Notes: generated from the letters alone by a model not told the origin. 64,000 bases of DNA from Rubrivivax sp. (GCA_046348125.1 JAXMEV010000013.1:23127-87126); one strand, 5' to 3'. Counted from the first letter of the stretch, positions 25,030 through 63,814 are shown. Made by a program: numbers and translations.

Positions 25030-25141
25030 ACGCGCGCACGCAGCGCGCACGCCTGGGCTCTCGAGGAACGCAGGACCGCTCGCCGGCTTCATGTTCCCCC
25101 ATGCGGGGCGCGCGCGGCGGGCGCACGGCCCTGACGGCCCT

Positions 25142-26227: not shown

Positions 26228-26260
26228 CCCGCGCGGCCTTCGCCGCAGGCAAGCCTAGCG

Positions 26261-27440: not shown

Positions 27441-27630
27441 CGCGGGCACTGCTCGCGCACGCGCACGCAGAGCGCGGGTTTGCCCTTAGCCCGCATCGCG
27501 CCGAAGGCATCGCGCGCCGGCCCGGCAACGATTTGCGCGCTCATCCCGGCGCTTCTCGTGCATTCGTCCGCTGGCGCGCTGCGCCACGATTGCGCTCAGG
27601 TTCGGACCCCCGTGTCCGATATCACGGACC

Positions 27631-29094: not shown

Positions 29095-30306
29095 CCGGAG
29101 ATGCCGCCGATGAAGCCCGCCTTTGCCTGGGATGACCCCTTTCGCCTCGACGAGCAGCTGAGCGAGGACGAACGCGCCGTGCGCGACGCCGCGCGCGCGT
29201 ACTGCCAGGACAAGCTGCAGCCGCGCGTGCTGCTGGCCGCGCGCCACGAGCACTTCGAGCGCGAGATCATGACCGAGATGGGCGCGCTCGGCCTGCTCGG
29301 CAGCACGATCGAGGGCTACGGCTGCGCCGGCCTCAACCATGTCTGCTACGGCCTGGTGGCGCGCGAGGTCGAGCGCGTCGACAGCGGCTACCGCAGCGCG
29401 ATGAGCGTGCAGAGCTCGCTCGTCATGCACCCGATCCACGCCTACGGCAGCCCGGCGCAGCGTCAGAAATACCTGCCCCGCCTGGCCAGCGGCGAGTGGA
29501 TCGGCTGCTTTGGCCTGACCGAGCCCGACCACGGCAGCGACCCGGCCGGCATGACGACGCGCGCGCGGCCGGTCGACGGCGGCTACCGGCTCACGGGCGC
29601 CAAGATGTGGATCACCAACAGCCCGATCGCCGACGTCTTCGTCGTCTGGGCCAAGCTGGCCGATCCCGACGGCAAAGTGGGCGGCCAGGAGAGCATCCAC
29701 GGCTTCATCCTCGACAAGGGCGTGAAGGGCCTCTCGGCGCCCAAGATCGAGGGCAAGATGAGCCTGCGCGCCAGCATCACCGGCGAGATCGTGATGGACG
29801 ACGTGTTCGTGCCGAGCGAGAACCTGCTGCCCGGCGTGAACGGCTTGAAGGGCCCGTTCGGGTGCCTCAACAAGGCGCGCTACGGCATCGCCTGGGGCGC
29901 GCTGGGCGCGGCCGAGTTCTGCTGGCACGCGGCACGCCGCTACACGCTCGAGCGCAAGCAGTTCGGCCGCCCGCTGGCGCAGAACCAGCTCATCCAGAAG
30001 AAGCTCGCCGACATGATGACCGAGATCGCGCTCGGCCTGCAGGGCTGCCTGCGCGTGGGCCGCCTGCTCGACGAAGGCAAGGCGGCGCCGGAGATGATCA
30101 GCCTGGTCAAGCGCAACAGCTGCGGCAAGGCGCTCGACGTGGCGCGCCTGGCGCGCGACATGCACGGCGGCAACGGCATCCACGACGAGTTCCATGTCAT
30201 CCGCCACATGATCAACCTCGAGACGGTGAACACCTACGAGGGCACGCACGACGTGCACGCGCTCATCCTCGGGCGCGCCTGCACCGGGCTGCAGGCGTTC
30301 TTCTGA
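29095..30306 (+). repeat. Left 1.2-kb direct repeat (gcdH) bounding the island
   Basis: About 14 nt differences by eye versus 62569-63780; identity starts at the CCGGAG RBS and ends at the stop codon. Confidence 0.95.
29101..30306 (+). CDS. gcdH: Glutaryl-CoA dehydrogenase, copy 1
   Basis: [58 protein letters not shown]. Confidence 0.93.
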
Positions 30307-30368
30307 TATTCGGCCATCCAGGGCTGCGATCACTCCTCGCCCGACAGCGAGGACGATGCGCCCGCCGA

Positions 30369-31181
30369 TCAGGGCCTTCTGTTGAAGCTGCCCCCGGCCG
30401 CGCTGCGCGCGTGGAAGTAGCCGCTCAGCAGGCCGCCGTCGACGAGCACGGACTCGCCGGTGACGAAGCCGGCGCCTTCGGAGAGCAGGAACAGCACCAC
30501 CTCGGCAACCTCGCCGGGCAGGGCCAGGCGCCCCATCGGCGTGCGCTCGAGCGCGATGCCGTCGCGAAACGCCGCCGGGATGTTGTTGTGGATCATGTCG
30601 GTGCCGGTCAGGCCCGGCGCCACCGCATTGACGCGGATGCCGTGGCCCGAGAGCTCCTGCGCCATCACCTTGGTCAGGCCGAGCAGGCCGGTCTTCGACG
30701 ACACGTAGCCGGCACGGCCTTCCTGGCCGGCATACGCCGAGATCGAGCACAGGTTGACGATCGCCCCCGTGCCGCGCGCGAGCATGTGGCGCGCCGCGGC
30801 CTGCCCGCACAGGAAGGCGCCCTTGAGGTTGGTGTCGATCTGCTCGTCCCAGACCTGCTCGCTCATGTCGACGAAGCGGTCCGGCCGCGAGATGCCTGCA
30901 TTGTTGACGAGGTAGTCGAGCCGGCCGAATTCGGCCAGCACGGCGTCGACCATCGCATGCACCTGCGCGCGCTCGCTGACGGCGGCCGGCACGGCCAGCG
31001 CACGGCCGCCCAGCGCGCGCACCTCGGCCACCACCGGCTCCACCGACTGCGCGCTCTGCCCATTGACGGCCACCGCCACGCCTTCGGCCGCCAGCTGCAG
31101 CACGATCTCGCGCCCGATGCCGCGCGAGCCGCCGGTCACCAGCGCGACGCCGCCCGCCAGTCCATAGCATCTCTTGGCCAC
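30369..31181 (-). CDS. SDR family oxidoreductase (FabG-like)
   Basis: TGGSRGIG, NNAG, YVSSK, NAVAPG; GTG start inferred. Confidence 0.88.
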   Translation of the reverse strand: MAKRCYGLAGGVALVTGGSRGIGREIVLQLAAEGVAVAVNGQSAQSVEPVVAEVRALGGRALAVPAAVSERAQVHAMVDAVLAEFGRLDYLVNNAGISRPDRFVDMSEQVWDEQIDTNLKGAFLCGQAAARHMLARGTGAIVNLCSISAYAGQEGRAGYVSSKTGLLGLTKVMAQELSGHGIRVNAVAPGLTGTDMIHNNIPAAFRDGIALERTPMGRLALPGEVAEVVLFLLSEGAGFVTGESVLVDGGLLSGYFHARSAAGGSFNRRP

Positions 31182-31192
31182 CGCCGCACCCC

Positions 31193-32884
31193 TCACGCCG
31201 CGCGGCGGCTGTCGTAGGTGCCGAACACCTGGCGCAGCACCTCGCAGATCTCGCCCATCGTCGCGTAGGCGCTCACGGCATCGACGACGACGTCCATCAG
31301 GTTGTTGTCGACCGCGGCCGGGCGCTCGGCGGCGGCGCGGATCGCCTGCAGCGCCCGGTCGACCGCGCGCTGATCGCGGCTGGCGCGCAGCTCCTCGACT
31401 TCGCGCCGCCGCATCTGCTCGACGTTGGGGTCGACCCGGTAGTAGCGCCTGGGCTCGCCGCGCTTGTCTTCGGCCATGGTGAAGCGGTTGAGGCCCACCT
31501 TCACCGTGTCGCCGCTGTCGATGCTGCGCTGCAGGGCCAGCGCGTCGCGCGTGATGACGTTCTGCACGTAGCCGGCGGCGATCGCCTGCGGCATGCCGCC
31601 CAGCGCGTCGATGCGCGCGATCTCGTCGACGAAGCGCTTCTCGTACTCCGAGGTCAGCCATTCCACGTAGTACGAGCCGCCGAGCGGATCGACCGTCTTG
31701 GTGATCCCGGTCTCGAAGGCGACGACCTGCTGGCTGCGGATGCCAATCACCTGCGAGGCCTCGCTCGGGATGCCCAGGCACTCGTCCATCGTGCGCAGGC
31801 AGATGTTCTGCGCGCCGGCCAGCGCGCCGACGACGCTGGCGATCGCGCTGCGCGTGATGTTGGTCTCCGGCTGCTGCCGCGTGAGCACCGAGCCGCCGTT
31901 GTGGGCGTAGAGCCGGAACACCTGGCAGCCGGGATCGGTGATGCCGTAGCGCTCCTTCATCAGCCTGGCCCACAGGCGCCGGCAAGCGCGGAACTTGCAG
32001 ATGTCCTCGAAGAACCGGTTGTGGTTGGGCGTCATCAGGAACGAGATCTTGGACGCCACCTTCTCGACCGGCACCCCCATGCGCTTGACCTGGTCCAGGT
32101 AGGCCAGACCGATGGCCAGCGTGAACGCGCCTTCGTGCACCGTGTTGGCGCCGGCCTCGCAGATGTGGTAGCCGCCGACGTTGATCGTCCAGTACTCGGG
32201 CACGTGCGTGGCGCAGTACAGCAGCGTGTCGGCAGCCAGCCGCATGCCGGCGTCGACCGGGAAGATGTAGTTGCCGCGCGCGATGTACTCCTTGAGCACG
32301 TCGTTCTGCATGCCGCCGCGCAGGCGCGACAGGTCGGCGCCTTGCTTGCGTGCCAGCGCCAGATGCATGGCGATGGTCACCACCGCCTGCGCGTTGGACA
32401 CCGAGTAGACGTACACCCGGTCCATCGGGATGCCGTCGAACATGAGCTCCCAGTCGCGCAGCGAGGCGAGGCTGATGCCGACCTTGCCCACTTCGCCGGC
32501 GGCCTGCGCATCGTCGGGGTCGTAGCCGAGCTGCGTCGGCAGGTCGAAGGCGAGGCTGAGCTCGGTCTGGCCGGCGGCCAGCAGGTTCTTGAACAGGACG
32601 TTGGTTTCCTGCGCGCTCGAGAAGCCCGCGTACTGCCCGATGCGCCAGGGCACGTCGCGGTACATCGTCGCCGTGTTGCCGCGCGTGAACGGAAAGCTGC
32701 CTGGGTAGGCGAGGTCGCGCTGGTAGTCGAAGCCCTGCTCGGCGAGGTCGGCCGGCGTGTACACGGGCTTGATGTCGAGCCCGAAGTCGGTGCGCCACTG
32801 GCGCTGCCCGTCGCGCTCGAGTTCGGCGCGGTTGGCTTCGCGCCAGGCCTGCTCGGCCGCCCGGATCTGTTCGATGTCGCTCAT
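31193..32884 (-). CDS. B12-dependent acyl-CoA mutase large subunit 1 (MCM family, no B12 domain)
   Basis: YPGSFPFTRG, QYAGF, AFDLPTQLGYD, QNDVLKEYIARG, GYHICEAGA, DPLGGSYYVE. Confidence 0.92.
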   Translation of the reverse strand: MSDIEQIRAAEQAWREANRAELERDGQRQWRTDFGLDIKPVYTPADLAEQGFDYQRDLAYPGSFPFTRGNTATMYRDVPWRIGQYAGFSSAQETNVLFKNLLAAGQTELSLAFDLPTQLGYDPDDAQAAGEVGKVGISLASLRDWELMFDGIPMDRVYVYSVSNAQAVVTIAMHLALARKQGADLSRLRGGMQNDVLKEYIARGNYIFPVDAGMRLAADTLLYCATHVPEYWTINVGGYHICEAGANTVHEGAFTLAIGLAYLDQVKRMGVPVEKVASKISFLMTPNHNRFFEDICKFRACRRLWARLMKERYGITDPGCQVFRLYAHNGGSVLTRQQPETNITRSAIASVVGALAGAQNICLRTMDECLGIPSEASQVIGIRSQQVVAFETGITKTVDPLGGSYYVEWLTSEYEKRFVDEIARIDALGGMPQAIAAGYVQNVITRDALALQRSIDSGDTVKVGLNRFTMAEDKRGEPRRYYRVDPNVEQMRRREVEELRASRDQRAVDRALQAIRAAAERPAAVDNNLMDVVVDAVSAYATMGEICEVLRQVFGTYDSRRAA

Positions 32885-32888
32885 GTTC

Positions 32889-33323
32889 CTACTCCTTGCG
32901 GCCGGCTGCGCCGGCCAGCGCCGCGTGGCGCCGCTGCGCGGCTTCGCGCACGAACGAAGAGATCTCGTCGAGCGGCGTGCCGCCCTTGAACACGCGCGCC
33001 ACGCCGGCCTCGGCGAGCAGCGGGATGTCCTTGTTCGGGATCACGCCGCCGACGATCAGCGAGACGTCGGCCAGCCCGGCCTCGCGCAGCCGGGCCGCCA
33101 CCTTGGGCACGACCTCCTTGTGCGCGCCGCACAGCGAGCTCAGGCCGACGACGTCGACCTGTTCCTCGACCGCGGCCTGCACGATCTGCTCGACGCTGTT
33201 GTAGTGGCCGAGGTAGATCACCTCCATGCCCGCGTCGCGCAGCGTCTGCGCCACCAGCCGGATGCCGGCCTGGTGTCCGTCCAGGCCGGCCTTGGCCACC
33301 AATACCCTTGCCTTGCGTTGCAT
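32889..33323 (-). CDS. Cobalamin-binding small subunit 1 of acyl-CoA mutase
   Basis: GLDGHQAG (DxHxxG), SSLCGAH, GGVIP. Confidence 0.92.
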   Translation of the reverse strand: MQRKARVLVAKAGLDGHQAGIRLVAQTLRDAGMEVIYLGHYNSVEQIVQAAVEEQVDVVGLSSLCGAHKEVVPKVAARLREAGLADVSLIVGGVIPNKDIPLLAEAGVARVFKGGTPLDEISSFVREAAQRRHAALAGAAGRKE

Positions 33324-33333
33324 GCGCCACTCC

Positions 33334-35016
33334 TCACCAGGGCAGCCGATAGCCGCCGAAGACTGCCTTCATCGCGTCGGCGATCTCGCCGCTCGTCGCG
33401 CCGACGCGCACCGCCTCGATGATCGGGAAGATCATGTTCGCGTCGTCGCCGGCCGGCCGCGCCGCCACCTGCCGCACCTTGTCGAGCGCGGCAGCCAGCG
33501 CCGCCTGGTCGCGCCGCGCCTTGTACGCGCGCAGCGCCGCGATGCGCTCGTCGACCACCGCCGCCGGCGCGGGCAGGTAGAAGTCCTCGCGCTCGGTGGC
33601 CTCCTCGGGCGGGTAGATGTTGAGCCCGAGCGAGAGCTTCTCGCCCGAGGTCACGCGCGCCACGTGCCGCGTGCCGGCCTCGAGGATCTTCTTGGCGGCG
33701 TAGCCGTTCTTGACGGCCTCGATCATGCCGCCCATGGCCTCGATGCGTTCGAGCTCGGCGCGTGCGCGCTGCTCGACCTCGTGCGTCAGCACTTCCACCG
33801 CGTAGGAGCCGCCCAGCGGGTCGACGATGTCGCACACGCCGGTCTCGAACTGCACCAGCTGCACGCTGCGCAAGGCGGTGATGCTGGCCTCTTCGCTGGG
33901 GATGCCCAGCGGCTCGTCGTAGGTCTTGGGCGTGGCCGACTGGATGCCGGCGAAGGCCATCGCCAGGCAGGCGATGGCGCCGCGCGCGACGTTCATGTCG
34001 CGCGAGTCCTTGATCAGGTCGAGGCCGCCGGTGGACACGCGCACCCAGGGCGCCATCGACTCGGGCTTCCTGGCGCCGTACTGGTCGCGCATCAGGCCCG
34101 ACCACAGGCGGCGGGCGGCGCGCCACTTGGCCACTTCGCACAGGAAGTCGCGATGGTTGACGCAGCCGAGGAAGGAGATGCGCGCCGCGACGTCGTCGAT
34201 GTCGTAGCCGCGGGCCAGTGCGGCGCGGATGTAGGCGGTGCCGGTGGCCATGCCGAACGCCAGCTGGTGCGCTTCGTCGCAGGCCGACTCCTCGTACTGC
34301 AGGCAGCACAGGTTGGACACGCGCGCCTTGGGCATGTGGCGGATGCCGAAGGTGATGACGTCGGTGGCCAGCCGCACCGAGGGGTCGGGCGGGTAGATGA
34401 ACTGGCTGTCGGTGAGGAAGCCCTTGATGATGTCGTTCTGGAAGAAGCCCAGCGTGTCGGCCCAGGCGATGCCGCGCCGTTCGGCCAGCACGCACATCAT
34501 CGCCACCCAGACCACGGCGAGCGGGTTGTTCACCCAGGCGACCGAGATCTTGCTGATGTCGATCGACTCGAGCACCGTCTCCAGATCCTCCAGCGTGGAC
34601 AGCGACAGGCCGGTCTTGCCGACGTCGTCGTAGGCGAGCGGGTGGTCGCAGTCGTAGCCCTGGATGGTCGGCAGGTCGAAGGCCAGGTGCAGGGCCTTGC
34701 TGCCCTTGGCCTGCAGGAGCTTGAACAGCGCGTTGGTCTCCTGCGGCGTCGAGAACCCCATGTACTGCGCCGACAGGTAGTGCTCGCCGCGGTACATCGT
34801 CGGCGTGATGCCGCGCGTGAACGGCGCCTCGCCCGGAAAGCCCAGGCTCCTGCCGTACTCGAAGCCGATCTTCTCGAGGTCGAGCGGCGTGTACAGGCGC
34901 TGGTACGGGATGCCCGAATCGGACGTGAACTCGGGCTTGCGCTCGCGCGCGAAGAGTTCCGAGTGCCGCGCCTCCCAGGCGCGCAGTTCGTGGTCGATGT
35001 CCTTCAGGGACGGCAT
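33334..35016 (-). CDS. B12-dependent acyl-CoA mutase large subunit 2 (highly divergent active site)
   Basis: FPGEAPFTRG, QYMGF, AFDLPTIQGYD, QNDIIKG, DEPLGIPSE, DPLGGSYAVE. Confidence 0.9.
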   Translation of the reverse strand: MPSLKDIDHELRAWEARHSELFARERKPEFTSDSGIPYQRLYTPLDLEKIGFEYGRSLGFPGEAPFTRGITPTMYRGEHYLSAQYMGFSTPQETNALFKLLQAKGSKALHLAFDLPTIQGYDCDHPLAYDDVGKTGLSLSTLEDLETVLESIDISKISVAWVNNPLAVVWVAMMCVLAERRGIAWADTLGFFQNDIIKGFLTDSQFIYPPDPSVRLATDVITFGIRHMPKARVSNLCCLQYEESACDEAHQLAFGMATGTAYIRAALARGYDIDDVAARISFLGCVNHRDFLCEVAKWRAARRLWSGLMRDQYGARKPESMAPWVRVSTGGLDLIKDSRDMNVARGAIACLAMAFAGIQSATPKTYDEPLGIPSEEASITALRSVQLVQFETGVCDIVDPLGGSYAVEVLTHEVEQRARAELERIEAMGGMIEAVKNGYAAKKILEAGTRHVARVTSGEKLSLGLNIYPPEEATEREDFYLPAPAAVVDERIAALRAYKARRDQAALAAALDKVRQVAARPAGDDANMIFPIIEAVRVGATSGEIADAMKAVFGGYRLPW

Positions 35017-35056
35017 GAGCGGGCTCCCAGCGGTTGGAGTTGCGGCATGGCTGCGC

Positions 35057-36862
35057 TCAGGCCGTGAAGATCCGTTCCGGATCGAAGAGCCTGAGCGTGG
35101 CCAGTTCGGTCGTTGTGATCGGCTCGTGGCTGGCGAGCGCGGGCGACGCCTCGAAGGCCCAGCCGCACGACGCGGCGGCGTCCTGCAGCCGTTGCTCGCG
35201 CGAGCGCGTCGGGCCGCCCGCGGCCAGGCGCGTGAGCGTGAACGCCGCCTCGGGGGCCGGCCTTTCGAACACGCCCAGCTGCGTCACCAGCGTGCGCACG
35301 CGCTGGCCCGACGTGGTGACGTAGGGCACTGCGTGCACCAGCCGCCTGGGCGACGCCGTGCACAGCGCCAGCAGCTCGCTGGCGCCGTTGCCGAGGTCGT
35401 TGGCGCCGCCCGAACCCACCAGGAAGGAGCCGTCGGCCTGGCGCGTCGAGTTGATGTTGCCCAGGCGGTCGATCTGCCCGGCGCCGATCACGGCCAGGCA
35501 GCGGTTGCCCGCGCCGCCGGCGAGCACGCCGAGCACGCTCATGAAGCCGGCATGCATCTTGTTCGTGAACATGTTGCCGACGCTGAACAGGTACGGGTCG
35601 CCCAGGCGCGGAACGTAGCCGAAGAAGCCGGCCTCGGCCATCAGCTCGACGTCGACGCCTTCGGCCTGCAGCGTGGAGACGGCCAGCCAGGCCGCGAGAT
35701 TGGCGACGCCGGCTCCGGCGAGCACCGTCGTGTGGCCGCCCTCGCGCACCCTGCGCGCGATCTCGCGCGCGGCGAGGATGATCATCGTCTCGGCTTCGGT
35801 GCCCTGCGCCTGGCGCGCCAGCGTCGGCAGCCTGGCGTCGAGCGCGGCGCGCCAGGCGCGTGCATCGAAGGCCGCGCGCAAGGCGTCGACGCGCTCGGCA
35901 CCCAGCCGCTCGACGTAGGCGGCATGGTCGGCGCAGCCCAGCACCCAGCGGCCGATCCACTCGTCCAGCGCGGCGTCGCTGCGCGTCGCCTCCTTGAATT
36001 CGCGCCGGAACGCGTAGTCCTCGCCGTAGCCGGCCTCGCCAGGGAGGCCGAAGTTCGTCATCGGTTGCGGATGCGCGCCCAGCGGCGCCACCGACACGCT
36101 GCGCACCCGGTGCGCCGGGATGCGCACCAGATGCGCGTGCCGACGGATGAATTCCGACGACACCAGCTTCTCGACGGTGAGCAGCACGCCGCCGGCGCTG
36201 GCGAAGGCGCCCCAGGCTTCCTCGCCGTAGGGCCCGAGCACGATGGCGTTGCCGCCGGCGTCGGCGGCATAGGCGTGGATCACGGCCAGGTCCGGGCGCA
36301 GGGCCTGCAGCACGCCCACGCGCCGCTCGTCTTCGGCGAACGGGTCGCCGACCTCGCGATAGCCGTTGGCCGGCGTCGCCAGCCCGGTGCCGGTGATCGA
36401 TCGCGTGGGCATGAAGGGCAGGCCCATGGCACCGGCCATCAGGCGCGTGGTGATCGTGAGGTTCGTGATCTCCTCGAGCGTGATGCGCCCCGCGGCCAGG
36501 GCGTCGCGGAACACCCGGTTGGGCCCCGGCATGGGATAGGTGTTGCCGGCGTAGGCGGCCGTCACCCGGTTCACCAGCCGCCCATGGACCATGATCAGGC
36601 CGGCCTCCAGGACGCCGGCGGTGATCAGATGGAACCGCGGGTCGGCGCCCCGGAAGCGCCGGATGATCTCGAAGGCCGCCGCATGCGCGCGCGCGTGTCC
36701 GAAGCCCATGTACAGGCTCATGCCCGGGCGCACGAGTGCGGCCACCGCCGAGGCGAGCGGCATCACCTTGCCGTGCCCGTCTTCTGGCGCCGGCAGCGCC
36801 TCGTGGCGGCGCACGACCGCATCGAAGACCGGCTGGGGGATCGAGTCCGTTGCTGCTGCCAT
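35057..36862 (-). CDS. Fused alpha/beta CoA-transferase (glutaconate CoA-transferase-like)
   Basis: AGAMGLPFMPTRS, ALRPDLAVIHA, GAHP (alpha part); MAEAG, GAGQIDRLGNINST, GSGGAND (beta part). Confidence 0.85.
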   Translation of the reverse strand: MAAATDSIPQPVFDAVVRRHEALPAPEDGHGKVMPLASAVAALVRPGMSLYMGFGHARAHAAAFEIIRRFRGADPRFHLITAGVLEAGLIMVHGRLVNRVTAAYAGNTYPMPGPNRVFRDALAAGRITLEEITNLTITTRLMAGAMGLPFMPTRSITGTGLATPANGYREVGDPFAEDERRVGVLQALRPDLAVIHAYAADAGGNAIVLGPYGEEAWGAFASAGGVLLTVEKLVSSEFIRRHAHLVRIPAHRVRSVSVAPLGAHPQPMTNFGLPGEAGYGEDYAFRREFKEATRSDAALDEWIGRWVLGCADHAAYVERLGAERVDALRAAFDARAWRAALDARLPTLARQAQGTEAETMIILAAREIARRVREGGHTTVLAGAGVANLAAWLAVSTLQAEGVDVELMAEAGFFGYVPRLGDPYLFSVGNMFTNKMHAGFMSVLGVLAGGAGNRCLAVIGAGQIDRLGNINSTRQADGSFLVGSGGANDLGNGASELLALCTASPRRLVHAVPYVTTSGQRVRTLVTQLGVFERPAPEAAFTLTRLAAGGPTRSREQRLQDAAASCGWAFEASPALASHEPITTTELATLRLFDPERIFTA

Positions 36863-36922
36863 GGCGCGATTTCGGGATGACTGTCTCGACTGCCGTGCGA
36901 GTCCGATCGTTGCCCGCCGCCT

Positions 36923-37888
36923 TCAGCCGCCCGCGCCAGCCGCTGCAGCGGGGCGGATGACCTCGGCCGCCGCCTGGCTGGCGGCGGTGTACGGGTCGAC
37001 GCGCCGGCTCGCCAGCGATTCGACGAGCTCGCCGTAGCCGGCCGACGCCTGCAGGCGCGCCATGCCCTGCTCGAACAGGTGCTCGCGCAGCAGCGCGCAG
37101 AAGCGGTCGTGCACGCGTTGCCGCTGCATCCGCTGCCAGCCGTCGTGCTGCTGCAACCGCGCCCGGTGGCGCTCGATCGCCGCCAACAGTTCGTCGATGC
37201 CCTTGCCGCGCGTCGCTTCGGTCTTCAGGACTTCGGGCGCCACCGCCCCGGCCTTCGGTGCGCGCAGGTGCAGCATGGCCTCGAGATCGCGCACCACCAG
37301 GTCGGCGCCCGGCAGGTCGGCCTTGTTGACGACGAAGACGGACGCAATTTCCAGGATCCCCGCCTTGATGGCCTGGATGTCGTCGCCGAGCCCGGGCACC
37401 TGCACGACGAGCGTGGTGTGCGCGAGGCGCACGATGTCGAGCTCGTCCTGGCCGACGCCGACCGTCTCGACGATGACGATGTCCTTGCCCATCGCGTCCA
37501 TCACGTCGACGACGTCGCCCGACGAGCGCGACAGGCCGCCCATGTGGCCGCGCGTGGCCAGGCTGCGCACGAACACGCCGGGATCGCCGGCATGCGGCTG
37601 CATGCGCACGCGGTCGCCGAGGATGGCGCCGCCGGAAAACGGGCTCGAAGGATCGATCGCGACCACGCCGACGCTGCGCCCACGCGCCCGAAACGCCCCG
37701 ACCAGCTGGCTGGTCAGGCACGACTTGCCCGCCCCCGGCGAGCCGGTGATGCCGATCACGTGCGCGCGCCCGGTGTGCGGATAGAGCCGGCGCAGCAGTT
37801 CGCGCGCCTCGGCGATCTCGTCGTCGAGATCGCGCATCAGGCGGGCCGCGGGACCGACCTCGCCGCGCAGGATGGCCGAGACGTCCAC
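36923..37888 (-). CDS. meaB: Mutase-associated GTPase chaperone MeaB
   Basis: GITGSPGAGKS, DPSSPFSGGAILGDRVRM, ETVGVGQ, QAIKAG, NKAD; GTG start inferred. Confidence 0.93.
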   Translation of the reverse strand: MDVSAILRGEVGPAARLMRDLDDEIAEARELLRRLYPHTGRAHVIGITGSPGAGKSCLTSQLVGAFRARGRSVGVVAIDPSSPFSGGAILGDRVRMQPHAGDPGVFVRSLATRGHMGGLSRSSGDVVDVMDAMGKDIVIVETVGVGQDELDIVRLAHTTLVVQVPGLGDDIQAIKAGILEIASVFVVNKADLPGADLVVRDLEAMLHLRAPKAGAVAPEVLKTEATRGKGIDELLAAIERHRARLQQHDGWQRMQRQRVHDRFCALLREHLFEQGMARLQASAGYGELVESLASRRVDPYTAASQAAAEVIRPAAAAGAGG

Positions 37889-37890
37889 GC

Positions 37891-38304
37891 CTAGGGCCTC
37901 ACGAAGTGGTAGGACACGCGGCCGCCGGGCAGGGCTCGGGGCTCCACGCGCAGCGCCATGCCGATCGTCGGGCCGCCGGCGGCGACCTCGGCCGCCAGTT
38001 GGCCGAACACCCGGATGCCGGCGGGGAACTCGACCACCGCCAGCGTGTAGGGCACTTCGTTCTCGAAGCCCGCGGGGCCATAGGCCACGGTGGTGTGGGT
38101 CAGCAGGCGACCGGGGCCCTCGATCGGCTCCCAGGCGAAGGCCTCGCTGCCGCAGCACGGGCAGCCGCTGCGCGGCGGGAAGGCCAGCTTGCCGCAGCCC
38201 GTGCAGCGCGTGGCCATCACGCGGCCCTCGGCGAGGTGGGTCGCGAAGGCCGCCACCTGCGTGTGCGCAACGAAGCTCCGGATGCCGAAGTCGGCGAAGT
38301 TCAT
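37891..38304 (-). CDS. DUF35 Zn-ribbon/OB-fold protein (thiolase partner)
   Basis: RCTGCG..FPPRSGCPCC zinc ribbon then OB fold; ATGA-coupled to the thiolase. Confidence 0.88.
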   Translation of the reverse strand: MNFADFGIRSFVAHTQVAAFATHLAEGRVMATRCTGCGKLAFPPRSGCPCCGSEAFAWEPIEGPGRLLTHTTVAYGPAGFENEVPYTLAVVEFPAGIRVFGQLAAEVAAGGPTIGMALRVEPRALPGGRVSYHFVRP

Positions 38305-39464
38305 GGCCCGTCGCTCCCGAGGATGGTGACGAAGGCATAGATGCCCGGCCCACCCAGGTTGTGCACGAGGCCGATGCGCGCGCCCTCGACCTGGGTGACG
38401 CCCCCTTCGCCGCGCAGCTGGCGCGTGACGGTGCGCAGCTGGCTCAGGCCGGTGGCGCCCACCGGATGCCCCTTGCCGAGCAGTCCGCCGTCGACGTTGA
38501 CCGGAATGCGCCCGCCCAGGCGCGTGTCGCCGGCGCGCAGCAGCGCGACGCCGCCGCCGGCCGGCGCGAAGCCGAGATCCTCGTAGGCGATGATCTCGCT
38601 GATCGTGAAGCAGTCGTGGACGCAGGCGAGGTCGATGTCCTCGGCGCCGACGCCGGCCATGCGGTAGGCCTGCTGCGCGGCGCTGCGGGCGCTGCCGAGC
38701 GACGTGAAGGAGGGACGGTTCGATAGCGTGGCCGAGTCGCTGGCGGCGCCCAGCCCCAGGATCCACACCGGACGATCGCCCAGCCGCCGCGCGGCCTCGC
38801 GCCCGGCGACGATCAGCACCACCGCGCCGTCGGCGTTGGCGCAGCAGTCGAGCATCCTGAGCGGGCTGACCACCGACGCCGACGCCAGCACCTCGTCCAC
38901 CGTGAAGGGCTTGCGGTAGGCCGCCTTGTCGTTGCTCACCGCATAGAGCGAGTTCTTCGCGCGCACTTCGGCCAGATCGGCCTCGCGGGTGCCGTAGGCC
39001 GCCATGTGGGCCTGCGCGAACAGCGCGAAGCCGGCCGGCTGCGTGAGCCCGAAGGGCGACTCCCACATGACGTCGCCGCTGCGGCCCATGCGTTCGGCGA
39101 CCTCGGCCGAAGACAGGTCCGACAGCTTCTGGAAGCCCACCACCGCGACCACTTCGTGCAGCCCCGAGCGGATGAGGCCATAGGCGGTGCGCAGGCCGCT
39201 CGAGCCCGACGAGCACAGCGATTCGACGTTGAACGTCGGCCTGCCGGACAGCCCCAGGCTTTCGGCCACGACGCCGGCCGGGCTGCGCTGGCGGTCGTAT
39301 TCCGAGGCCGAGCAGACCACCAGCGCGTCGATCGCGGCGCCGAGCGCGGCGCGCTCGTGCACCGCCTCGCGAAACGCCGAGAAGCACAGCTCGCCGATCG
39401 AGGCGCCGCTGCGACGCACGAACGGCGTCTGACCGGCGGCGACGATAGCGACTTCCTTTTCCAT
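38301..39464 (-). CDS. Thiolase, SCP2/SCP-x type
   Basis: ESLCSSG (nucleophile Cys), HDCF, GGLLGKGHPVGATG, HNLGG. Confidence 0.9.
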   Translation of the reverse strand: MEKEVAIVAAGQTPFVRRSGASIGELCFSAFREAVHERAALGAAIDALVVCSASEYDRQRSPAGVVAESLGLSGRPTFNVESLCSSGSSGLRTAYGLIRSGLHEVVAVVGFQKLSDLSSAEVAERMGRSGDVMWESPFGLTQPAGFALFAQAHMAAYGTREADLAEVRAKNSLYAVSNDKAAYRKPFTVDEVLASASVVSPLRMLDCCANADGAVVLIVAGREAARRLGDRPVWILGLGAASDSATLSNRPSFTSLGSARSAAQQAYRMAGVGAEDIDLACVHDCFTISEIIAYEDLGFAPAGGGVALLRAGDTRLGGRIPVNVDGGLLGKGHPVGATGLSQLRTVTRQLRGEGGVTQVEGARIGLVHNLGGPGIYAFVTILGSDGP

Positions 39465-39479
39465 GCAGTGGCCTCCTGC

Positions 39480-40370
39480 TCAGCCGGGCAGCTCGGCGAC
39501 GCCCGTGCGCGCGCCGGCCCGGTCGTAGACATACCAGCCGCAGCCGCTCTTGCGGCCCAGCTGGCCGGCCTGCACCTTGCGACGCAGCAGCTCGGGCGGC
39601 CGGAATTTCTCTTCGCCCGTTTCAGCGTAGAGCGCCGCGAGCGCATTGAAGCCCGTGTCGAGACCGACCATGTCGGCCGTCTCGAACGGCCCCATCGGGC
39701 GGCCGAAGCCCAGGCGCATCGCCTTGTCGATGTCGGGCACCGACGCCACCCCGGACTCCACCAGCCGGATGGCCTCGACGTTGCTCGGCAGGTTGATGCG
39801 GTTGAACACGAAGCCCGCGACGTCCTTGTGCACGTGGATGACTTCCTTGCCCAGCGAGCGCACGAAGGCCACCGCGCGCTCGAACGCCGCCTCCGTGGTG
39901 GCCGCGCTGCGGATCACCTCGGCCACCGGCATCAGCGGCACCGGGCTCGTGAAATGCATGCCCAGGCAGCGCTCGGGGCAGGAGGTCGCGGCGGCGATCT
40001 TGCCGATCGGGATCGTCGAGGTGTTGCTCGCCAGGATCGCCGTCGGCCGCGCCAGCCGCTCGAGCGCACGGAAGATCCCCTGCTTGACCTGCAGTTCCTC
40101 GACCACGGTCTCGATGCAGATGTCGCCGCCGGCGCATTGCTCGAGGTCGAGCACCGGCGTGATGCGTGCCAGCACCGCTTCGGACGCGTCGGCAATGCGG
40201 CCCTTGGCATGCAGCTTGGCGGCGGACTCGGCGGTGTTCTTCATGGCCCGCTCGAGCTCCGCTGCGTTCAGGCCCCACAGCCTGACGCGATAGCCGGCCT
40301 GCGCCGCGCATTGGGCGATGCCCTGGCCCATCAGCCCGGCACCGACGACGACCACCAAGTCGGTGTTCAT
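39480..40370 (-). CDS. 3-hydroxyacyl-CoA dehydrogenase
   Basis: GAGLMGQGIA, SNTS, GMHF, GFVFNR, PMGPFETADMVGLD, LGRKSG. Confidence 0.92.
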   Translation of the reverse strand: MNTDLVVVVGAGLMGQGIAQCAAQAGYRVRLWGLNAAELERAMKNTAESAAKLHAKGRIADASEAVLARITPVLDLEQCAGGDICIETVVEELQVKQGIFRALERLARPTAILASNTSTIPIGKIAAATSCPERCLGMHFTSPVPLMPVAEVIRSAATTEAAFERAVAFVRSLGKEVIHVHKDVAGFVFNRINLPSNVEAIRLVESGVASVPDIDKAMRLGFGRPMGPFETADMVGLDTGFNALAALYAETGEEKFRPPELLRRKVQAGQLGRKSGCGWYVYDRAGARTGVAELPG

Positions 40371-42004
40371 CCGCCCTCCTGCGTCACGCGCTTGAAGATC
40401 TCCGCCTCGAGCCGCTTGCGGTCGACCTTGCCGTTGTGCAGCAAGGGCAGCTCGGCGACGTTCTCCACGCGCTCGGGAATCTTGTACTTGGCGAAGCCGC
40501 GGCCGACCAGGTACTCGAAGCAGTCGGACACGCTCATCGTCTGTCCCGCCGCCGGCACGACGAAGGCGCAGACGCGCTCGCCGAACACCGGATCGGGCAT
40601 CTTGACGACCGCGATCTCGCGGATCTTCGGGTGCCCGACCAGCGCCTCTTCCACTTCGGTGGGGCTGATGTTCTGGCCGCCGCGGATGATGATGTTCTTT
40701 TTGCGCCCGACGATGCGCAGATAGCCCTCGGCATCGAGCACGCCCAGGTCGCCCGAGCGGAACCAGCCGTCGGCTCCGAACGAATGATTGCCGTCGCCCC
40801 ACAGGCCGACCGCGCAGTTGGGGCCGCGGTAGACGACCTCGCCGACCTCGCCGGCGGCCAGTGCCGCGCCGTCGTCGTCGGCGATCTTCAGCTCCATGCC
40901 CGCGCACGCCTTGCCCACCGTGTTGAAGACGCGCTCGGCCGGGTCGTCGTACAGGGTGTGGACTGGCGTGCCGCCGTCCAGCGCGCCGTAGGCTTCCATC
41001 AGGCGGCAGCCGAACTTGCGCGCGAACTCGGCCGCCGCCTCGGCGGCGAGCGGTGCGCCGGCGTGGTAGAAGAGGCGCAGCGAGGAAAGATCGAACTCGC
41101 CCAGGCGGGCGCTGTTCATCATCTTGATCATGTGCGTGGGCACGCCGACCGCGACCGTGACGCGCTCGCGCTCGATCAGTTCGAGCGCGGCGTCGGGGTC
41201 GAAGCGCTCGAGCAGCACGTTGCGGCAGCCCGCGATCAGCGAGGCCACGGTGGCCACCGAATAGCCCGTGCCCTGGATCACCGGCGCCACGCCGAGCACG
41301 ACGTCGTCGGGGCGCAGGCGGGCGCGCTCGACGATGTGGTGGCCGAGCGTGAGGAACACGTTGGGCGTGCGCAGCACGAACTTGGGCTTGCCGGTGCTGC
41401 CCGAGGTCGACATCAGGATGTCGATGTCGTTGGCGCTCGGATGGAAGGACAGCAGGTGGCCCGGGGCATGCCGGGTCTCGATCGGATCGGCCAGCATGTC
41501 CTCGAGACAGGCGGCAGCGTCGAACCGGCCGGCGATCGACACCCAATGCGCGACGAAGGGCAGCCGCGCGCGCAGGCCGCGCGCCATTTCGGTGTAGTCG
41601 AAGCCGCTGAAGTGCGCGCAGAAGAAGAAGGCCTTGGCGCCGGTGTCGGTGAGCGCGACCTCGACCTCATGCTCGCGCGCCGTGTAGGCCAGCGGCACCG
41701 GGATGGCGCCGATGCGCGCGCAGGCGAACCGGATGTAGAAGAACTCGACCCAGTTGGGCGTCTGCATGCCGACGCGGTCGCCCGGCCGGATGCCCATCGC
41801 GAGCATGGCCAGCGCGACGCGCTCGGTGGCGCGCTTGAGTTCGGCGAAGCTCACGCGCCGGCGCGCGTCCGAAGCCGCCGTCCGCTCGGGCGTATACGCG
41901 GCGTGGTGGTCGAGATGATCGGCCAGCGTCATGCGGCCCCAGTAGCCGGCCGCGGTGTAGCGGTCGATCATCTCCTGCGTCAGCAGCGAAGGAATCGGCG
42001 TCAT
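40367..42004 (-). CDS. AMP-forming acyl-CoA synthetase (cyclohexanecarboxylate-CoA ligase-like)
   Basis: STSGSTGKPK, YGALD, WFRSGDLG, GRKKNIIIRGG, NGKVDR. Confidence 0.9.
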   Translation of the reverse strand: MTPIPSLLTQEMIDRYTAAGYWGRMTLADHLDHHAAYTPERTAASDARRRVSFAELKRATERVALAMLAMGIRPGDRVGMQTPNWVEFFYIRFACARIGAIPVPLAYTAREHEVEVALTDTGAKAFFFCAHFSGFDYTEMARGLRARLPFVAHWVSIAGRFDAAACLEDMLADPIETRHAPGHLLSFHPSANDIDILMSTSGSTGKPKFVLRTPNVFLTLGHHIVERARLRPDDVVLGVAPVIQGTGYSVATVASLIAGCRNVLLERFDPDAALELIERERVTVAVGVPTHMIKMMNSARLGEFDLSSLRLFYHAGAPLAAEAAAEFARKFGCRLMEAYGALDGGTPVHTLYDDPAERVFNTVGKACAGMELKIADDDGAALAAGEVGEVVYRGPNCAVGLWGDGNHSFGADGWFRSGDLGVLDAEGYLRIVGRKKNIIIRGGQNISPTEVEEALVGHPKIREIAVVKMPDPVFGERVCAFVVPAAGQTMSVSDCFEYLVGRGFAKYKIPERVENVAELPLLHNGKVDRKRLEAEIFKRVTQEGG

Positions 42005-42017
42005 GGCGTCTCGGGCT

Positions 42018-42866
42018 TCAGAATCTGAAGGCGGCACGTGCGGCGCCTTCGAGCAGCTGCGACCTGGCGTCGGGTCTTAGCCCCAGCTGCTCTATCTGCT
42101 CGAGCGAGCCGGGCCAGTCGAGCACCGGAAAGTCGGAGCCGTACATCACCTTGCCGATGCCGCGCCGGGTGTTGAGAAAGGACACCAGCTCGGGCTTCCA
42201 GTAGCGCGGCGCATGCGCGGTGGTGGCGATGTACACGTTGGGGTGCTTCCACGCCACCGCGATCAGCTCCTCCACCCAGGGCCAGCCGGTGTGGGCGCAG
42301 ACGATCCGCAGATCGGGGAAGTCGAGCGCGATCGTGTCGACCAGCATCGGGCGGCCGCACTCGCTGGGCATGGCCTCGGCCGAGTGGCCGATCTGCATCA
42401 CGACCGGCACGTCGAGCTCGGCGCACTTGGCGTAGAAGGGGTAGTAACGGCGATGGTCGACCGGCAGCTCGAAGCCGTAGGGGTGGAGATGGGCGCCGAC
42501 GAAGCCCAGCTCGCGCACCGCGCGCTCGAGCTCGCGCACGCCGGACATGCGCGTGAACGGGTCGATGCCGAACAGCCCGTGCAGCCGCGTCGGGTGCGCG
42601 CGCAGCAGCGCATGGATCTCGTCGGCGCCGAACGACCACTGCATGCGCTGATGGACGAAGGAGCGGATCTGCAGCGCCGGGATCAGCACCTTGTCGATGC
42701 CGTGCCGGTCCATGTCGGCGACGAAGGCGTCGGGGCTGCGGCCGCGCACGCGCTCGGTCAGGCCCCACCACTCGGTCACCTTGCGCTGCTCCTCGTCGTC
42801 GATGTAGCAGCGCCTCATCATCTCGGGCGAGTAGGGCTGATGCCAGATGTCGATCGTTCCGGCCAT
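42018..42866 (-). CDS. Amidohydrolase-2 family protein
   Basis: GFVGAHLHP, YPFYAKCAELDVPV, AHTGWPW, HPNVY, KVMYGSDFP. Confidence 0.88.
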   Translation of the reverse strand: MAGTIDIWHQPYSPEMMRRCYIDDEEQRKVTEWWGLTERVRGRSPDAFVADMDRHGIDKVLIPALQIRSFVHQRMQWSFGADEIHALLRAHPTRLHGLFGIDPFTRMSGVRELERAVRELGFVGAHLHPYGFELPVDHRRYYPFYAKCAELDVPVVMQIGHSAEAMPSECGRPMLVDTIALDFPDLRIVCAHTGWPWVEELIAVAWKHPNVYIATTAHAPRYWKPELVSFLNTRRGIGKVMYGSDFPVLDWPGSLEQIEQLGLRPDARSQLLEGAARAAFRF

Positions 42867-42874
42867 GACCCACC

Positions 42875-43288
42875 TCACCGGCGCGCGCCGAGCTCGGCGA
42901 TGAGGCGCACCGTTTCCGCCAGCGGCACGTCCTGCTCGAAGACGTGGGCCGCGCCGAGCGCCTCGAGTGCCCGCCGGTCCTCCTCCTCGGGGATGAAGCC
43001 GCCGGCGACCACCTTCTTGTCGCCGGCGCCGCGGGCGCGCAGCTCCTGGATCAGCTCGGGCACCAGCGTCATGTGGGCGCCGGAGAGGATGCTGACGCCG
43101 ACCACGTCGACGTCCTCCTGCACCGCGGTCTCGGCGACGTGCGCGACGCGCTGATGCAGGCCGGTGTAGATGACCTCCATGCCGGCATCCTTGAGCGCCT
43201 CGGCGAGGATCTTGATGCCGCGGTCGTGGCCGTCGAGGCCGACCTTGCCCAGCAGCACGCGCATCGTGCGCCTGGCGTTCGTGCTCAT
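42875..43288 (-). CDS. Cobalamin-binding small subunit 2 of acyl-CoA mutase
   Basis: GLDGHDRG, GMEVIYTG, SILSGAH, GGFIP; AAGGAG RBS. Confidence 0.92.
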   Translation of the reverse strand: MSTNARRTMRVLLGKVGLDGHDRGIKILAEALKDAGMEVIYTGLHQRVAHVAETAVQEDVDVVGVSILSGAHMTLVPELIQELRARGAGDKKVVAGGFIPEEEDRRALEALGAAHVFEQDVPLAETVRLIAELGARR

Positions 43289-43332
43289 ATCGAACTCCTT
43301 GACCGCTTGTTGTGTCCGCGCCCGGCCGCCCG

Positions 43333-44091
43333 TCAGCGGGGCACGTAGTTGGTGACGCTCCAGCCGCCGTCGACGACCAGCGTGTGGCCGTTGACGAAGG
43401 CGGCCTCGTCGGAGCACAGGAACCACACCGCGTTGGCGATGTCCTGCGGCCGACCGAGCCGCACGAAGGGCGTGGGCTCGGCCACGAGCCGGCGGTAGTA
43501 GGCGTCGTGGCTCAGGCGCTCCTGCGACAGCTGGGTCGGCACGACCCCCGGAGCGACGGCGTTGATGCGGATGCCGCGCGGCCCGTAGTCGGCGGCCATC
43601 TGGCGCGTCAGGCCGATCAGCGCCGCCTTGCTGGCCGCGTACGGCGCCGAGCCCGGATTGCCGAGGATGCCGAAGATCGATGCCACGTGCACGATCGCGC
43701 CGCGCTCGGGTTCGAGCCTGGGCAGCACGGCGCGCGAATAGCGGAACGCCGCGCGCAGGTTGACGTCGAGGAAGCGGTCCCATTCCGCGTCGCTGGTCTG
43801 GTCGGCCGGCTTGGCGTTGCCGATGCCGGCGTTGTTCACCAACCAGTCGACGCGACCGAAGGCGTCGAGCGCCGCGGCCAGCGCGTCCGCCGGCGCGCTC
43901 GGCGCCGTGATGTCCTGTGCCAGCGTGCGCACGCGCTCCGGCTGCCCGCTGGATGCACGGGCCTCCTCCAGCTCGTCGGCCTTCTGGTCGCAGGCCAGCA
44001 CCCGGGCGCCCGCACGCACGAAGCGCTGCAGCGTCGCGCGCCCGATGCCCTGCGCGGCACCGGTGATGATGGCCACTCCGCTCGTCTGCAC
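43333..44091 (-). CDS. SDR family oxidoreductase
   Basis: TGAAQGIG, NNAG, YAASK, NAVAPG; GTG start with GGAG RBS. Confidence 0.9.
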   Translation of the reverse strand: MQTSGVAIITGAAQGIGRATLQRFVRAGARVLACDQKADELEEARASSGQPERVRTLAQDITAPSAPADALAAALDAFGRVDWLVNNAGIGNAKPADQTSDAEWDRFLDVNLRAAFRYSRAVLPRLEPERGAIVHVASIFGILGNPGSAPYAASKAALIGLTRQMAADYGPRGIRINAVAPGVVPTQLSQERLSHDAYYRRLVAEPTPFVRLGRPQDIANAVWFLCSDEAAFVNGHTLVVDGGWSVTNYVPR

Positions 44092-44265: not shown

Positions 44266-44277
44266 TATGTATACATA
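44266..44277. promoter_or_regulatory. Palindromic operator TATGTATACATA (putative GntR site)
   Basis: Perfect 12-bp palindrome upstream of the mutase operon. Confidence 0.65.
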
Positions 44278-44464: not shown

Positions 44465-45268
44465 TCACGGCGCCGTCGGCCAGTACTTGGTCTCGCTGAA
44501 GCCGCCATCGACGGCAAGCGTCTGGCCCGTGATGAAGGAGGCGTCGTCCGAACACAGGAACGCCACGGCCGCGGCAACCTCCTCGGGCGTACCGGTGCGC
44601 CCGAGCGGCGTCCCGCCGAGTACGGAGGCCTTGAACCATTCGTTGGACGCCAGGCGCTGGGCCGTCAGGGGCGTCGCGATGGCACCGGGTGCCACCGCGT
44701 TGACGCGCAGACCGCGCACGCCGTAGTCGGCAGCCATCTGGCGTGTCAGCCCGATCACGGCAGCCTTGCTGGCGGCATAGGGCGCACAGTTCTGGAATCC
44801 GCGCAGGCCGTTCACCGAGGCGATGTTCACGATCGCCGCGTGACGCGGCGCCGCCGCCTCCAGGAAGGCCCTGCTCAAGCGCATCAGCGCGCGCACGTTG
44901 ATGCTCAGGTAGCGATCGATGTCGGCGTCGCTGCTGGCGTGCAGTGGCTTGGCGTCACCGACCCCGGCGTTGTTGACCAGCAGCTCGGGCGCACCGAAGC
45001 TCGACCGGCAGCGCTCGACGATGCGCTGTGGTGCCGCGTCGTCGGCCAGGTCGACATCCAGCAACTCCAGACGATCCCGGTCAATGGGCGCACACGACTG
45101 CCGCGTTTGTTGCAGTCCGGTCGCGTCGCGGTCGGTCGCAAGCACGCGCGCGCCTTCGGCCAGCAGGCGCAATGCGATGGCTTGCCCGATGCCCGAGGCC
45201 GCTCCGGTGACGATTGCGTTTCGCTCGGCCAGGCGCTTGGCACCCGGTTGTCCGACGTTGCGCGTCAT
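44465..45268 (-). CDS. SDR family oxidoreductase (paralog of 43333-44091)
   Basis: TGAASGIG, NNAG, YAASKAAVIGLTRQMAADYG. Confidence 0.88.
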   Translation of the reverse strand: MTRNVGQPGAKRLAERNAIVTGAASGIGQAIALRLLAEGARVLATDRDATGLQQTRQSCAPIDRDRLELLDVDLADDAAPQRIVERCRSSFGAPELLVNNAGVGDAKPLHASSDADIDRYLSINVRALMRLSRAFLEAAAPRHAAIVNIASVNGLRGFQNCAPYAASKAAVIGLTRQMAADYGVRGLRVNAVAPGAIATPLTAQRLASNEWFKASVLGGTPLGRTGTPEEVAAAVAFLCSDDASFITGQTLAVDGGFSETKYWPTAP

Positions 45269-46880: not shown

Positions 46881-47089
46881 TCGGCACGGGGTCGGAGGCC
46901 CCCGTGCGGCACGAGCGCGCGGGGCCGGCAGGGCCCGCCCCGGCCGTTGGTCCGGCGTTCGACGTCTCGAGCGACGGTGTCGGCGCCGGCTTGCCGGCCA
47001 AACGATGGGCGGCCCCGGCAGCCGCGCCGTCGTCGCCTTGCCGAATCGCCCGTGCCCCTCGTGAGCGTCCGCCGGTGTGAGGTCTGCGC

Positions 47090-48031: not shown

Positions 48032-48043
48032 CGTCATGACGAC

Positions 48044-51609: not shown

Positions 51610-51625
51610 AGACGGACCGCCGACC

Positions 51626-54617: not shown

Positions 54618-54672
54618 GACTCGCTGCCTCGGCGCCATCCCTTTCCAGCCCGCACCCTCACCGGAGAGAACC

Positions 54673-55884: not shown

Positions 55885-55957
55885 GGCACGCCCTCAGCAA
55901 GTCACTCCGGGGGCCGGCGCGCGCGCTCGCAGCCGCCGCGCTCCGGCTCCACGCATC

Positions 55958-59244: not shown

Positions 59245-59247
59245 GAC

Positions 59248-61562: not shown

Positions 61563-61627
61563 CGCCGCCTGCCGCCTGACTCTGCCCATCCGCCCCGCCC
61601 ATCTGCCCTGCCCACGAAGGCAAGCCC

Positions 61628-63780: not shown

Positions 63781-63814
63781 TTCGCCCGACGCCGCCGGCA
63801 GCCAGCGCACCACG

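Follow-up and report, generated by a model that had tools for sequence, protein, structure and literature searches.

Why would a single catabolic operon keep two adenosylcobalamin (AdoCbl)-dependent acyl-CoA mutases? The question is raised by a 64,000-nucleotide stretch of DNA (the window) from Rubrivivax sp. (GCA_046348125.1 JAXMEV010000013.1:23127-87126), in which positions 30,369 to 44,091 hold a run of genes that includes two mutase large subunits, Mut1 and Mut2, and two cobalamin-binding small subunits, B12a and B12b (Table 1). The cluster is real and conserved, and its mutases represent two subfamilies not yet characterised, of which one has an unusual active site. The operon likely forms the enzymatic core of a catabolic island, its two independent AdoCbl mutases acting on chemically different intermediates of one imported organic acid.

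The gene content and order of the original prediction, made from the sequence alone, are borne out: 14 of 14 open reading frames (ORFs) are present, all on the minus strand and with intergenic gaps of -4 to 60 bp, and the family and profile scans agree with each gene name (SDR, B12-binding, Amidohydro_2, ligase, 3HCDH, thiolase, DUF35, MeaB, CoA-transferase and mutases). The extent of about 14 kb holds for the run itself, but the unit is larger, with a further short-chain dehydrogenase (SDR) gene, SDR0, 373 bp upstream and the operon forming one arm of a 32.3-kb island (30308-62568) of 32 genes between two gcdH copies.

Mut1 and Mut2 score 548 and 469 bits against TIGR00641 (cut-off 303.8), which places both among the AdoCbl mutase large subunits. 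They are of the split type, with separate small subunits (DGHDRG in B12a, DGHQAG in B12b) and a MeaB chaperone (TIGR00750, 324 bits). Both fail the equivalog models of methylmalonyl-CoA mutase (MCM) and IcmF; NF006944 is far below its cut-off, and NF045497 gives 168-190 bits compared with 1500. The large subunits are 38-39% identical to each other, and the small subunits 44-45%.

The trees (LG+G4) comprise 36 and 33 rows selected from 352 aligned sequences and nine added ones. The reference mutases (MCM, IcmF, HcmA, IaaH-like and pivalyl-CoA mutase (PCM)-like) are from the host genome and were assigned by signature and gene context; RcmA, the (R)-specific 2-hydroxyisobutyryl-CoA mutase, and the Desulfococcus mutase are not in the set. 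Mut1 and Mut2 lie within one radiation of unnamed sequences (support 100/98 and 100/99), whose probable sister is the group of IaaH-like proteins (90/99 and 87/87). In a FastTree of 115 rows the radiation is again recovered, and IaaH lies outside it. A long-branched row (L055), ethylmalonyl-CoA mutase (ECM)-like by its motif, is also located outside. Approximately unbiased (AU) tests reject Mut1 and Mut2 as sisters (p 6e-51), Mut1 with IaaH (p 0.011), and Mut1 with MCM, Mut2 with HcmA and Mut2 with the PCM-like enzyme (all p below 1e-50). The rejected sisterhood indicates that the pair was recruited from two subfamilies and not duplicated in place. Both large subunits are outside the MCM-, HCM- (2-hydroxyisobutyryl-CoA mutase), IcmF-, PCM-, ECM- and IaaH-like references and have non-matching pocket residues, so the original prediction of two divergent mutases escapes the refutation that a place within characterised clades would have brought. 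The surrounding radiation shows at least 10 distinct pocket signatures; at one locus (L023), such an unnamed mutase is found with a ligase, an acyl-CoA dehydrogenase, a PrpD-like protein and a crotonase.

The pockets of the two enzymes differ markedly. In P. shermanii numbering (own numbering in brackets), Mut1 retains Tyr89 (Tyr85), Gln197 (Gln193), Arg207 (Arg203), Tyr243 (Tyr239), His244 (His240), Glu247 (Glu243) and Glu370 (Glu368). Its CoA tunnel is altered by Arg87Gly/Ala, Ser164Tyr, Asn236Trp, His328Tyr, Gln330His and Asn366Arg. Tyr89 and Arg207 are the carboxylate pair; their retention with the other pocket residues points to a Mut1 substrate with a free carboxylate. Mut2 retains Tyr89 (Tyr85), Gln197 (Gln193), Glu247 (Glu243) and Glu370 (Glu368). 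It carries the changes Arg207Asp (Asp203), Tyr243Leu (Leu239), His244Gln (Gln240), Ser114His (His110), Thr195Phe, Asn236Arg, Arg326Trp (Trp324), His328Arg (Arg326) and Asn366Lys (Lys364), which are invariant in 21 of 21 orthologues. The idea of a plugged CoA tunnel gained no support from the summed mid-layer side-chain volumes (a crude test), which are 914 and 986 compared with 888-953 in the references. With tunnel volume and three basic residues roughly kept, CoA binding by Mut1 and Mut2 is plausible.

Neither pocket corresponds to a known class. MCM combines Tyr89, Arg207 and His244 with a Ser/Thr tunnel; its pocket columns are matched at 13 of 28 positions in Mut1 and 11 of 28 in Mut2, which sets both apart from methylmalonyl-CoA mutase. 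HcmA has Ile90, Asp117 and Gln208; at these positions both island enzymes carry Tyr and Ala, followed by Arg in Mut1 and Asp in Mut2, and neither belongs to its clade. Tyr89 in both enzymes separates them from isobutyryl-CoA mutase (ICM) and IcmF, whose signature at 89/207 is Phe/Gln. For PCM, which removes a quaternary carbon, the signature is Leu/Asn; the host enzyme with these residues, assigned as PCM-like on that basis, is in a separate clade. As regards ECM, recognised by a fused B12 domain and its clade, both island mutases are split.

The loss of the Arg207, Tyr243 and His244 equivalents raises the question of whether Mut2 is an enzyme at all. It would be a structural or regulatory partner in one heteromeric enzyme with Mut1, like the inactive MutA of propionibacterial MCM, a reading that also draws on the changed B12b loop (DGHQAG) and on the fact that nothing but B12b ever lies between mut1 and mut2. 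We consider this quite improbable. The replaced residues are invariant in 22 of 22 sequences, and a sister sequence 49% identical to Mut2 also has Asp207, Gln244, Trp326 and Arg328; Tyr89, Gln197, Glu247 and Glu370 are retained, and two intact B12 domains are maintained, with the Lys-Asp-His residues kept in both separate small-subunit lineages. Mut2 scores 469 bits with TIGR00641 but 124 with TIGR00642, the model for inactive subunits. The predicted structures of Mut1 and Mut2 are confident (mean pLDDT 92), and in the fold search, run with the Mut2 model, TM values are 0.94 to active HcmA (4R3U) and about 0.7 to inactive MCM beta subunits. The complex prediction for Mut2 with both small subunits scores 0.10 and is counted on neither side. 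Non-MCM pocket columns are invariant in 12 of 17 cases in Mut2 compared with 124 of 328 changed columns elsewhere (p 0.01), and in 10 of 15 in Mut1 compared with 82 of 317 (p 0.0015); the sequences are related, so both p values overstate the significance. The dN/dS ratios are 0.05-0.20, with Mut2 at or below Mut1 in six of six pairwise comparisons, although dS is near saturation in the distant pairs. Because Asp207, Leu243 and Gln244 are invariant and dN/dS is no higher than in Mut1, Mut2 is likely to be catalytically active.

Is the cluster a variant of a known pathway? In the indoleacetate (iaa) pathway (PMC8360864), the combined work of a ligase, a CoA-transferase of the intramolecular kind and a mutase delivers a malonyl-type thioester to a decarboxylating dehydrogenase. 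The Aromatoleum aromaticum system (IaaGH phenylsuccinyl/benzylmalonyl-CoA mutase, IaaB ligase, IaaL transferase, IaaF), as described there, shares with the island a split mutase with Tyr89/Arg207, a ligase and a CoA-transferase, a thiolase, a HAAT binding protein and a GntR regulator. It has one mutase, a family III transferase, a decarboxylating acyl-CoA dehydrogenase, a fused hydratase, a hydantoinase and a Mo-hydroxylase, whereas the island has two mutases, a family I transferase and an amidohydrolase, and Mut1 is 45% identical to the IaaH-like enzyme with a different pocket. A member of the IaaH clade and the IaaF, IaaCE, IaaIJK, IaaL and IaaP genes are lacking in the island. The HcmAB/Hcl/MeaH pathway for 2-hydroxyisobutyrate (4R3U; PMC7176365) is alike in its split subunits, ligase, MeaB-type chaperone and passage of the product straight to 3-hydroxyacyl-CoA dehydrogenase and thiolase. 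HcmA (4R3U) is the best solved match for both large subunits, but identity is 35-37% and hcm has one mutase. PCM and IcmF/ICM share fold, cofactor and MeaB chaperone; the host PCM-like and IcmF genes are located elsewhere and are 28-34% identical to the island mutases. The ketone-activation cluster of Desulfococcus biacutus and Desulfosarcina cetonica, compared by its description (PMC7888143), has a split B12 mutase, MeaB and an SDR oxidising the 3-hydroxyacyl-CoA product, but a thiamine diphosphate (ThDP) enzyme core and one mutase; the island has no ThDP enzyme.

The host genome (4.0 Mb) contains seven MCM-family large subunits (MCM, IcmF, HcmA, IaaH-like, PCM-like, Mut1 and Mut2) on contigs C4, C6, C8, C12 and C13. 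A complete iaa cluster (anaerobic indoleacetate degradation) is located at C12:18000-52000, away from the island, and an hcm cluster (hcmB-ligase-meaH-hcmA) at C8:28000-42000. The latter is followed directly by a ThDP enzyme gene, and the mutase and lyase routes for 2-hydroxyisobutyrate may be joined in this one operon. The PCM-like gene lies near carboxylase and acyl-CoA dehydrogenase genes and is distinct from Mut1 and Mut2. These separate iaa, hcm and PCM-like genes make it very improbable that the island encodes redundant isoenzymes of indoleacetate, 2-hydroxyisobutyrate, pivalate or ketone metabolism; so do the AU rejections and the missing hydantoinase, Mo-hydroxylase, IaaF, family III transferase and ThDP enzyme. 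What speaks for such a variant is that, among lineages of characterised type, IaaH comes closest (45% to Mut1; sister, 87-90% bootstrap) and that iaa, too, includes a ligase, a transferase, a mutase and a thiolase. The claim that no characterised pathway has this enzyme set thus survives comparison with iaa, hcm and every other described pathway tested. No cluster with two large and two small mutase subunits was found described in the open-access literature at abstract level. Unassigned mutase classes were reportedly predicted by Jost in 2015, which may bear on novelty.

The cluster is conserved as a unit across phyla and is not syntenic with the indoleacetate or hcm clusters, as a search for synteny, suggested with the original prediction, has now established. 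Orthologues of Mut2 are present at eight genome loci and at least four metagenome loci; two of these at least 12 related loci (L001 and L009) are near-identical. The carriers, some with parts of the cluster, are distantly related and uncultured, beta- and alphaproteobacteria among them: Rubrivivax, Ramlibacter, other Betaproteobacteria, Rhodospirillales, Thermodesulfobacteriota and Gemmatimonadaceae bins. At E 1e-125, Mut2 had no match in 400 further genomes from the host family. No orthologue came from plasmid searches, in which identity peaked at 44.5% for Mut1, 49% for the amidohydrolase and 40% for the transferase, and atlas searches gave family-level matches only. The Mut2 clade has 21 full-length clusters at 69-95% identity, with the next sequences at 45%; the Mut1 clade has 24 at 66-97%, with the next at 54%. 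Mut2-B12b-Mut1 are adjacent in all eight loci that extend to Mut1, and SDR2 directly follows Mut1 in all six related loci that extend that far. Two modules, CoAT-Mut2-B12b-Mut1-SDR2 and B12a-amidohydrolase-ligase-(HBD-thiolase-DUF35)-MeaB, persist despite shuffled order and are separated (divergent) in L005, L007 and L008.

Among the other operon enzymes, the ligase finds its closest matches in aryl-acid adenylases and cyclohexanecarboxylate-CoA ligase, under all cut-offs. The catalytic Glu of the CoA-transferase (LMAEAG, aligned to the Glu of GctB and AtoA) is kept in 12 of 12 copies, which places it in family I; a role as an IpdAB-like ring hydrolase was rejected because the beta-subunit Glu is retained. 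The thiolase motifs Cys84, HDCF and GHP are invariant in six of six copies. An association of mutase and amidohydrolase genes in haloarchaea was dropped because the mutase there is ICM-like. No acyl-CoA dehydrogenase or crotonase was found in the island with 27 and 28 host proteins plus seeds as queries, both positive controls being matched; the sole island match was the 3-hydroxyacyl-CoA dehydrogenase gene (HBD), through the HBD domain of fused queries. Likewise, 17 of 18 related stretches have neither, the exception lying about 17 kb outside the island. This absence makes it less likely that a de-branched alkyl chain undergoes ordinary beta-oxidation, the fate originally proposed for the product, and favours a substrate in which the 3-oxygen is already present.

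We infer the reactions, the order of the mutases, the pairing of their subunits and the substrate as follows. Activation of a bulky and probably cyclic acid would fall to the ligase. In a dicarboxylic intermediate, the glutaconate-type CoA-transferase would see to it that CoA sits on the right carboxyl, much as IaaL acts on phenylsuccinate. Mut1, with Tyr89/Arg207, would interconvert substituted succinyl- and malonyl-type thioesters. The amidohydrolase-fold protein would then remove the freed carboxyl or add water, non-oxidatively, and so stand in for the acyl-CoA dehydrogenase that the island lacks. Mut2, with Asp at 207, would rearrange a non-carboxylated thioester bearing a hydroxyl or amino group. 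The resulting 3-hydroxyacyl-CoA could be oxidised by HBD or SDR2, and cleavage of the product by the thiolase-DUF35 pair would release acetyl-CoA together with a shortened acyl-CoA that host pathways could use. We lean, by a little, towards this scheme, at whose centre Mut1 rearranges a carboxylated acyl-CoA and Mut2 a polar, non-carboxylated one to yield a 3-hydroxyacyl-CoA for the dehydrogenase and thiolase.

The two mutases could instead both be active side by side, each on its own stereoisomer, regioisomer or close analogue within one substrate class, and supply an HBD that is (S)-specific and an SDR2 that is (R)-specific, which we regard as rather unlikely. Two candidate 3-hydroxyacyl-CoA oxidising enzymes of different folds, racemase-family genes that travel with the cluster and the split into two divergent modules would fit; both stereo-forms of 2-hydroxyisobutyryl-CoA mutase occur in one Bacillus (PMC7176365), and the mutase of the Desulfosarcina acetone cluster has an SDR after it (PMC7888143). 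Yet Arg or Asp at 207 is a charge reversal, a better fit to different functional groups than to mirror images, and Mut1 and Mut2 remain in the same module.

Several points weigh against the sequential scheme. The roles given to the pocket residues are presumed, except where Protein Data Bank titles name the Y89F and H244A mutants. His244 is present in 263 of 352 aligned sequences and is lost in Mut2, as is Tyr243; from these losses, Mut2 could have low or no activity. HxH on strand 1 is the metal-binding motif of Amidohydrolase-2 decarboxylases and hydratases; the island protein lacks it, with DIWHQ or DVWHQ in nine of nine copies, and a decarboxylase role is therefore proposed on pathway logic only. 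Among solved structures it comes closest to an uncharacterised protein (E 4e-26); hydratases and decarboxylases match it no better than E 1e-9 to 1e-5, and its relatives adjoin acyl-CoA dehydrogenases in other clusters. Host acyl-CoA dehydrogenases (27 matches) could supply the missing steps. In L005, the stretch from ligase to MeaB is devoid of HBD, thiolase and DUF35. Among the candidate substrates considered, namely substituted malates, atrolactate-type acids, terpenoid diacids, succinimides and 1-hydroxy-cyclohexanecarboxylates, none stands out from the rest. In favour of the scheme, the host is a nitrate-reducing aromatic degrader that carries bcrB, boxB, narG and a PduO-type adenosyltransferase. 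Of five other carriers, only two exceed the cut-off for bcrB (class I benzoyl-CoA reductase) and two have boxB, and an aromatic end product is not established by this distribution. cobS and cobA/btuR were not found in the host genome, which at 84% completeness does not demonstrate their absence.

Table 1. Features of the operon, the island and its boundaries (window positions)
Feature	Position	Strand	Remarks
gcdH, left copy	29095..30307	+	direct repeat bounding the island
SDR2, 3-oxoacyl-reductase-type SDR	30369..31181	-	
Mut1, acyl-CoA mutase large subunit	31193..32884	-	PF01642/TIGR00641, 548 bits
B12b, second cobalamin-binding small subunit	32889..33323	-	PF02310/TIGR00640; lineage-specific DGHQAG
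Mut2, acyl-CoA mutase large subunit	33334..35016	-	PF01642/TIGR00641, 469 bits
Fused GctA/GctB-like family I CoA-transferase	35057..36862	-	
MeaB G-protein chaperone	36923..37888	-	TIGR00750, 324 bits, above cut-off
DUF35/ChsH2 zinc-ribbon OB-fold protein	37891..38304	-	partner of the thiolase
SCP2/BbsB-type thiolase	38301..39464	-	Cys84, HDCF, GHP motifs
3-Hydroxyacyl-CoA dehydrogenase, HBD type (3HCDH)	39480..40370	-	
Acyl-CoA ligase (AMP-binding)	40367..42004	-	
Amidohydro_2 TIM-barrel protein	42018..42866	-	PF04909; DIWHQ in place of canonical HxH; candidate decarboxylase or hydratase
B12a, cobalamin-binding small subunit	42875..43288	-	PF02310/TIGR00640; K-x4-DGHDRG intact
SDR1, short-chain dehydrogenase	43333..44091	-	first gene of the operon
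Palindrome TGTATACA	44268..44275	.	predicted GntR/FadR operator upstream of the operon
SDR0	44465..45268	-	SDR1 paralogue (49%), 373 bp upstream of the operon run
HAAT-family ABC importer 1, five genes	45645..50756	+	common to two betaproteobacterial copies
SDR3 and NADH:flavin oxidoreductase (OYE family)	50779..52849	+	
GntR/FCD regulator	52880..53599	-	
SDR4, HAAT-family ABC importer 2, SDR5	53757..59982	+	binding protein at 54673..55884
SnoaL_4 domain protein	60010..60528	-	
Two Asp/Glu/hydantoin racemase-family genes	60762..62413	+	
gcdH, right copy	62569..63781	+	14 differences in 1213 bp compared with the left copy

Besides the operon, the island carries two HAAT-type ABC importers, four more SDRs, an OYE-family enzyme, the GntR regulator, a SnoaL protein and two racemase-family proteins. 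Importer 2 is found in four of four widely read relatives (G001-G004), racemase-family genes in three of four and a GntR gene nearby in all four. Both catalytic Cys of the two racemase-family proteins are replaced by Ser and Glu, as in the Rhodospirillales copy, whereas one or both are retained in other copies. A structure search gave no informative solved match for the importer binding protein or the racemase-like proteins.

The palindrome TGTATACA recurs at 45526, 53716 and 60575. The four island copies are at putative promoter regions, compared with 0.00 expected, and the 4.0-Mb genome has six; one box stands beside the GntR gene of the host iaa cluster. The box is present in nine of 12 related loci and three of six extensions. 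We take the palindrome to belong to the FadR/GntR class, and it is likely a GntR/FadR operator. Runs from RNA libraries contain the region (13 of 18 matching rows are recorded as RNA), but these were not taken as expression because only contigs are available, depth is flat and the contigs cross intergenic DNA.

The island lies inside a duplication of the whole gcdH gene and its ribosome-binding site, the copies being 98.8% identical, and no integrase was seen; this suggests integration by homologous recombination. The order msrA-gcdH-ydcF is contiguous in nine of 21 gcdH loci examined, including eight of the 12 closest, of the same genus, and a relative with the island elsewhere. As that nearest relative keeps an intact msrA-gcdH-ydcF site, gcdH was rejected as a pathway gene. 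In four runs of one study, which may include the source sample, one contig bridges the left island junction, and gcdH depth is about double in two of the four. The GC content is 0.696 in the island and 0.723 genome-wide. The island is likely mobile and co-regulated. To the left of gcdH, a GC-rich, REP-like intergenic repeat of about 80 bp occurs at 25096-25221 and 27281-27444 (37 BLAST matches over 12 contigs). A lexA-like gene at 26216-27285 is followed directly by a small ORF, which looks akin to helix-hairpin-helix (Cdd1/TfoX-like) proteins.

Acyl-CoA mutases are known for no more than a handful of reactions, and attempts to engineer the pocket rationally have failed (PMC11599936, PMC2847961). 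The island offers two natural mutase subfamilies with fixed, very different pockets, packaged with a ligase, transferase, chaperone, importer, regulator and predicted operator box, which makes discovery of the substrate directly testable. It is conceivable, though unlikely, that Mut2, with Asp replacing Arg207, Gln replacing His244 and its CoA tunnel rebuilt, is a radical mutase with new chemistry, such as ring expansion or contraction of an amino-, hydroxy- or ring-bearing thioester, that with Mut1 it would make up a catabolic pathway that is the first to rely on two AdoCbl skeleton rearrangements in sequence, and that it marks a large unexplored radiation. If the two mutases do act in tandem, they would add two radical rearrangements to those known and give sludge-dwelling and other uncultured bacteria a way to degrade a branched or cyclic acid independently of oxygen.

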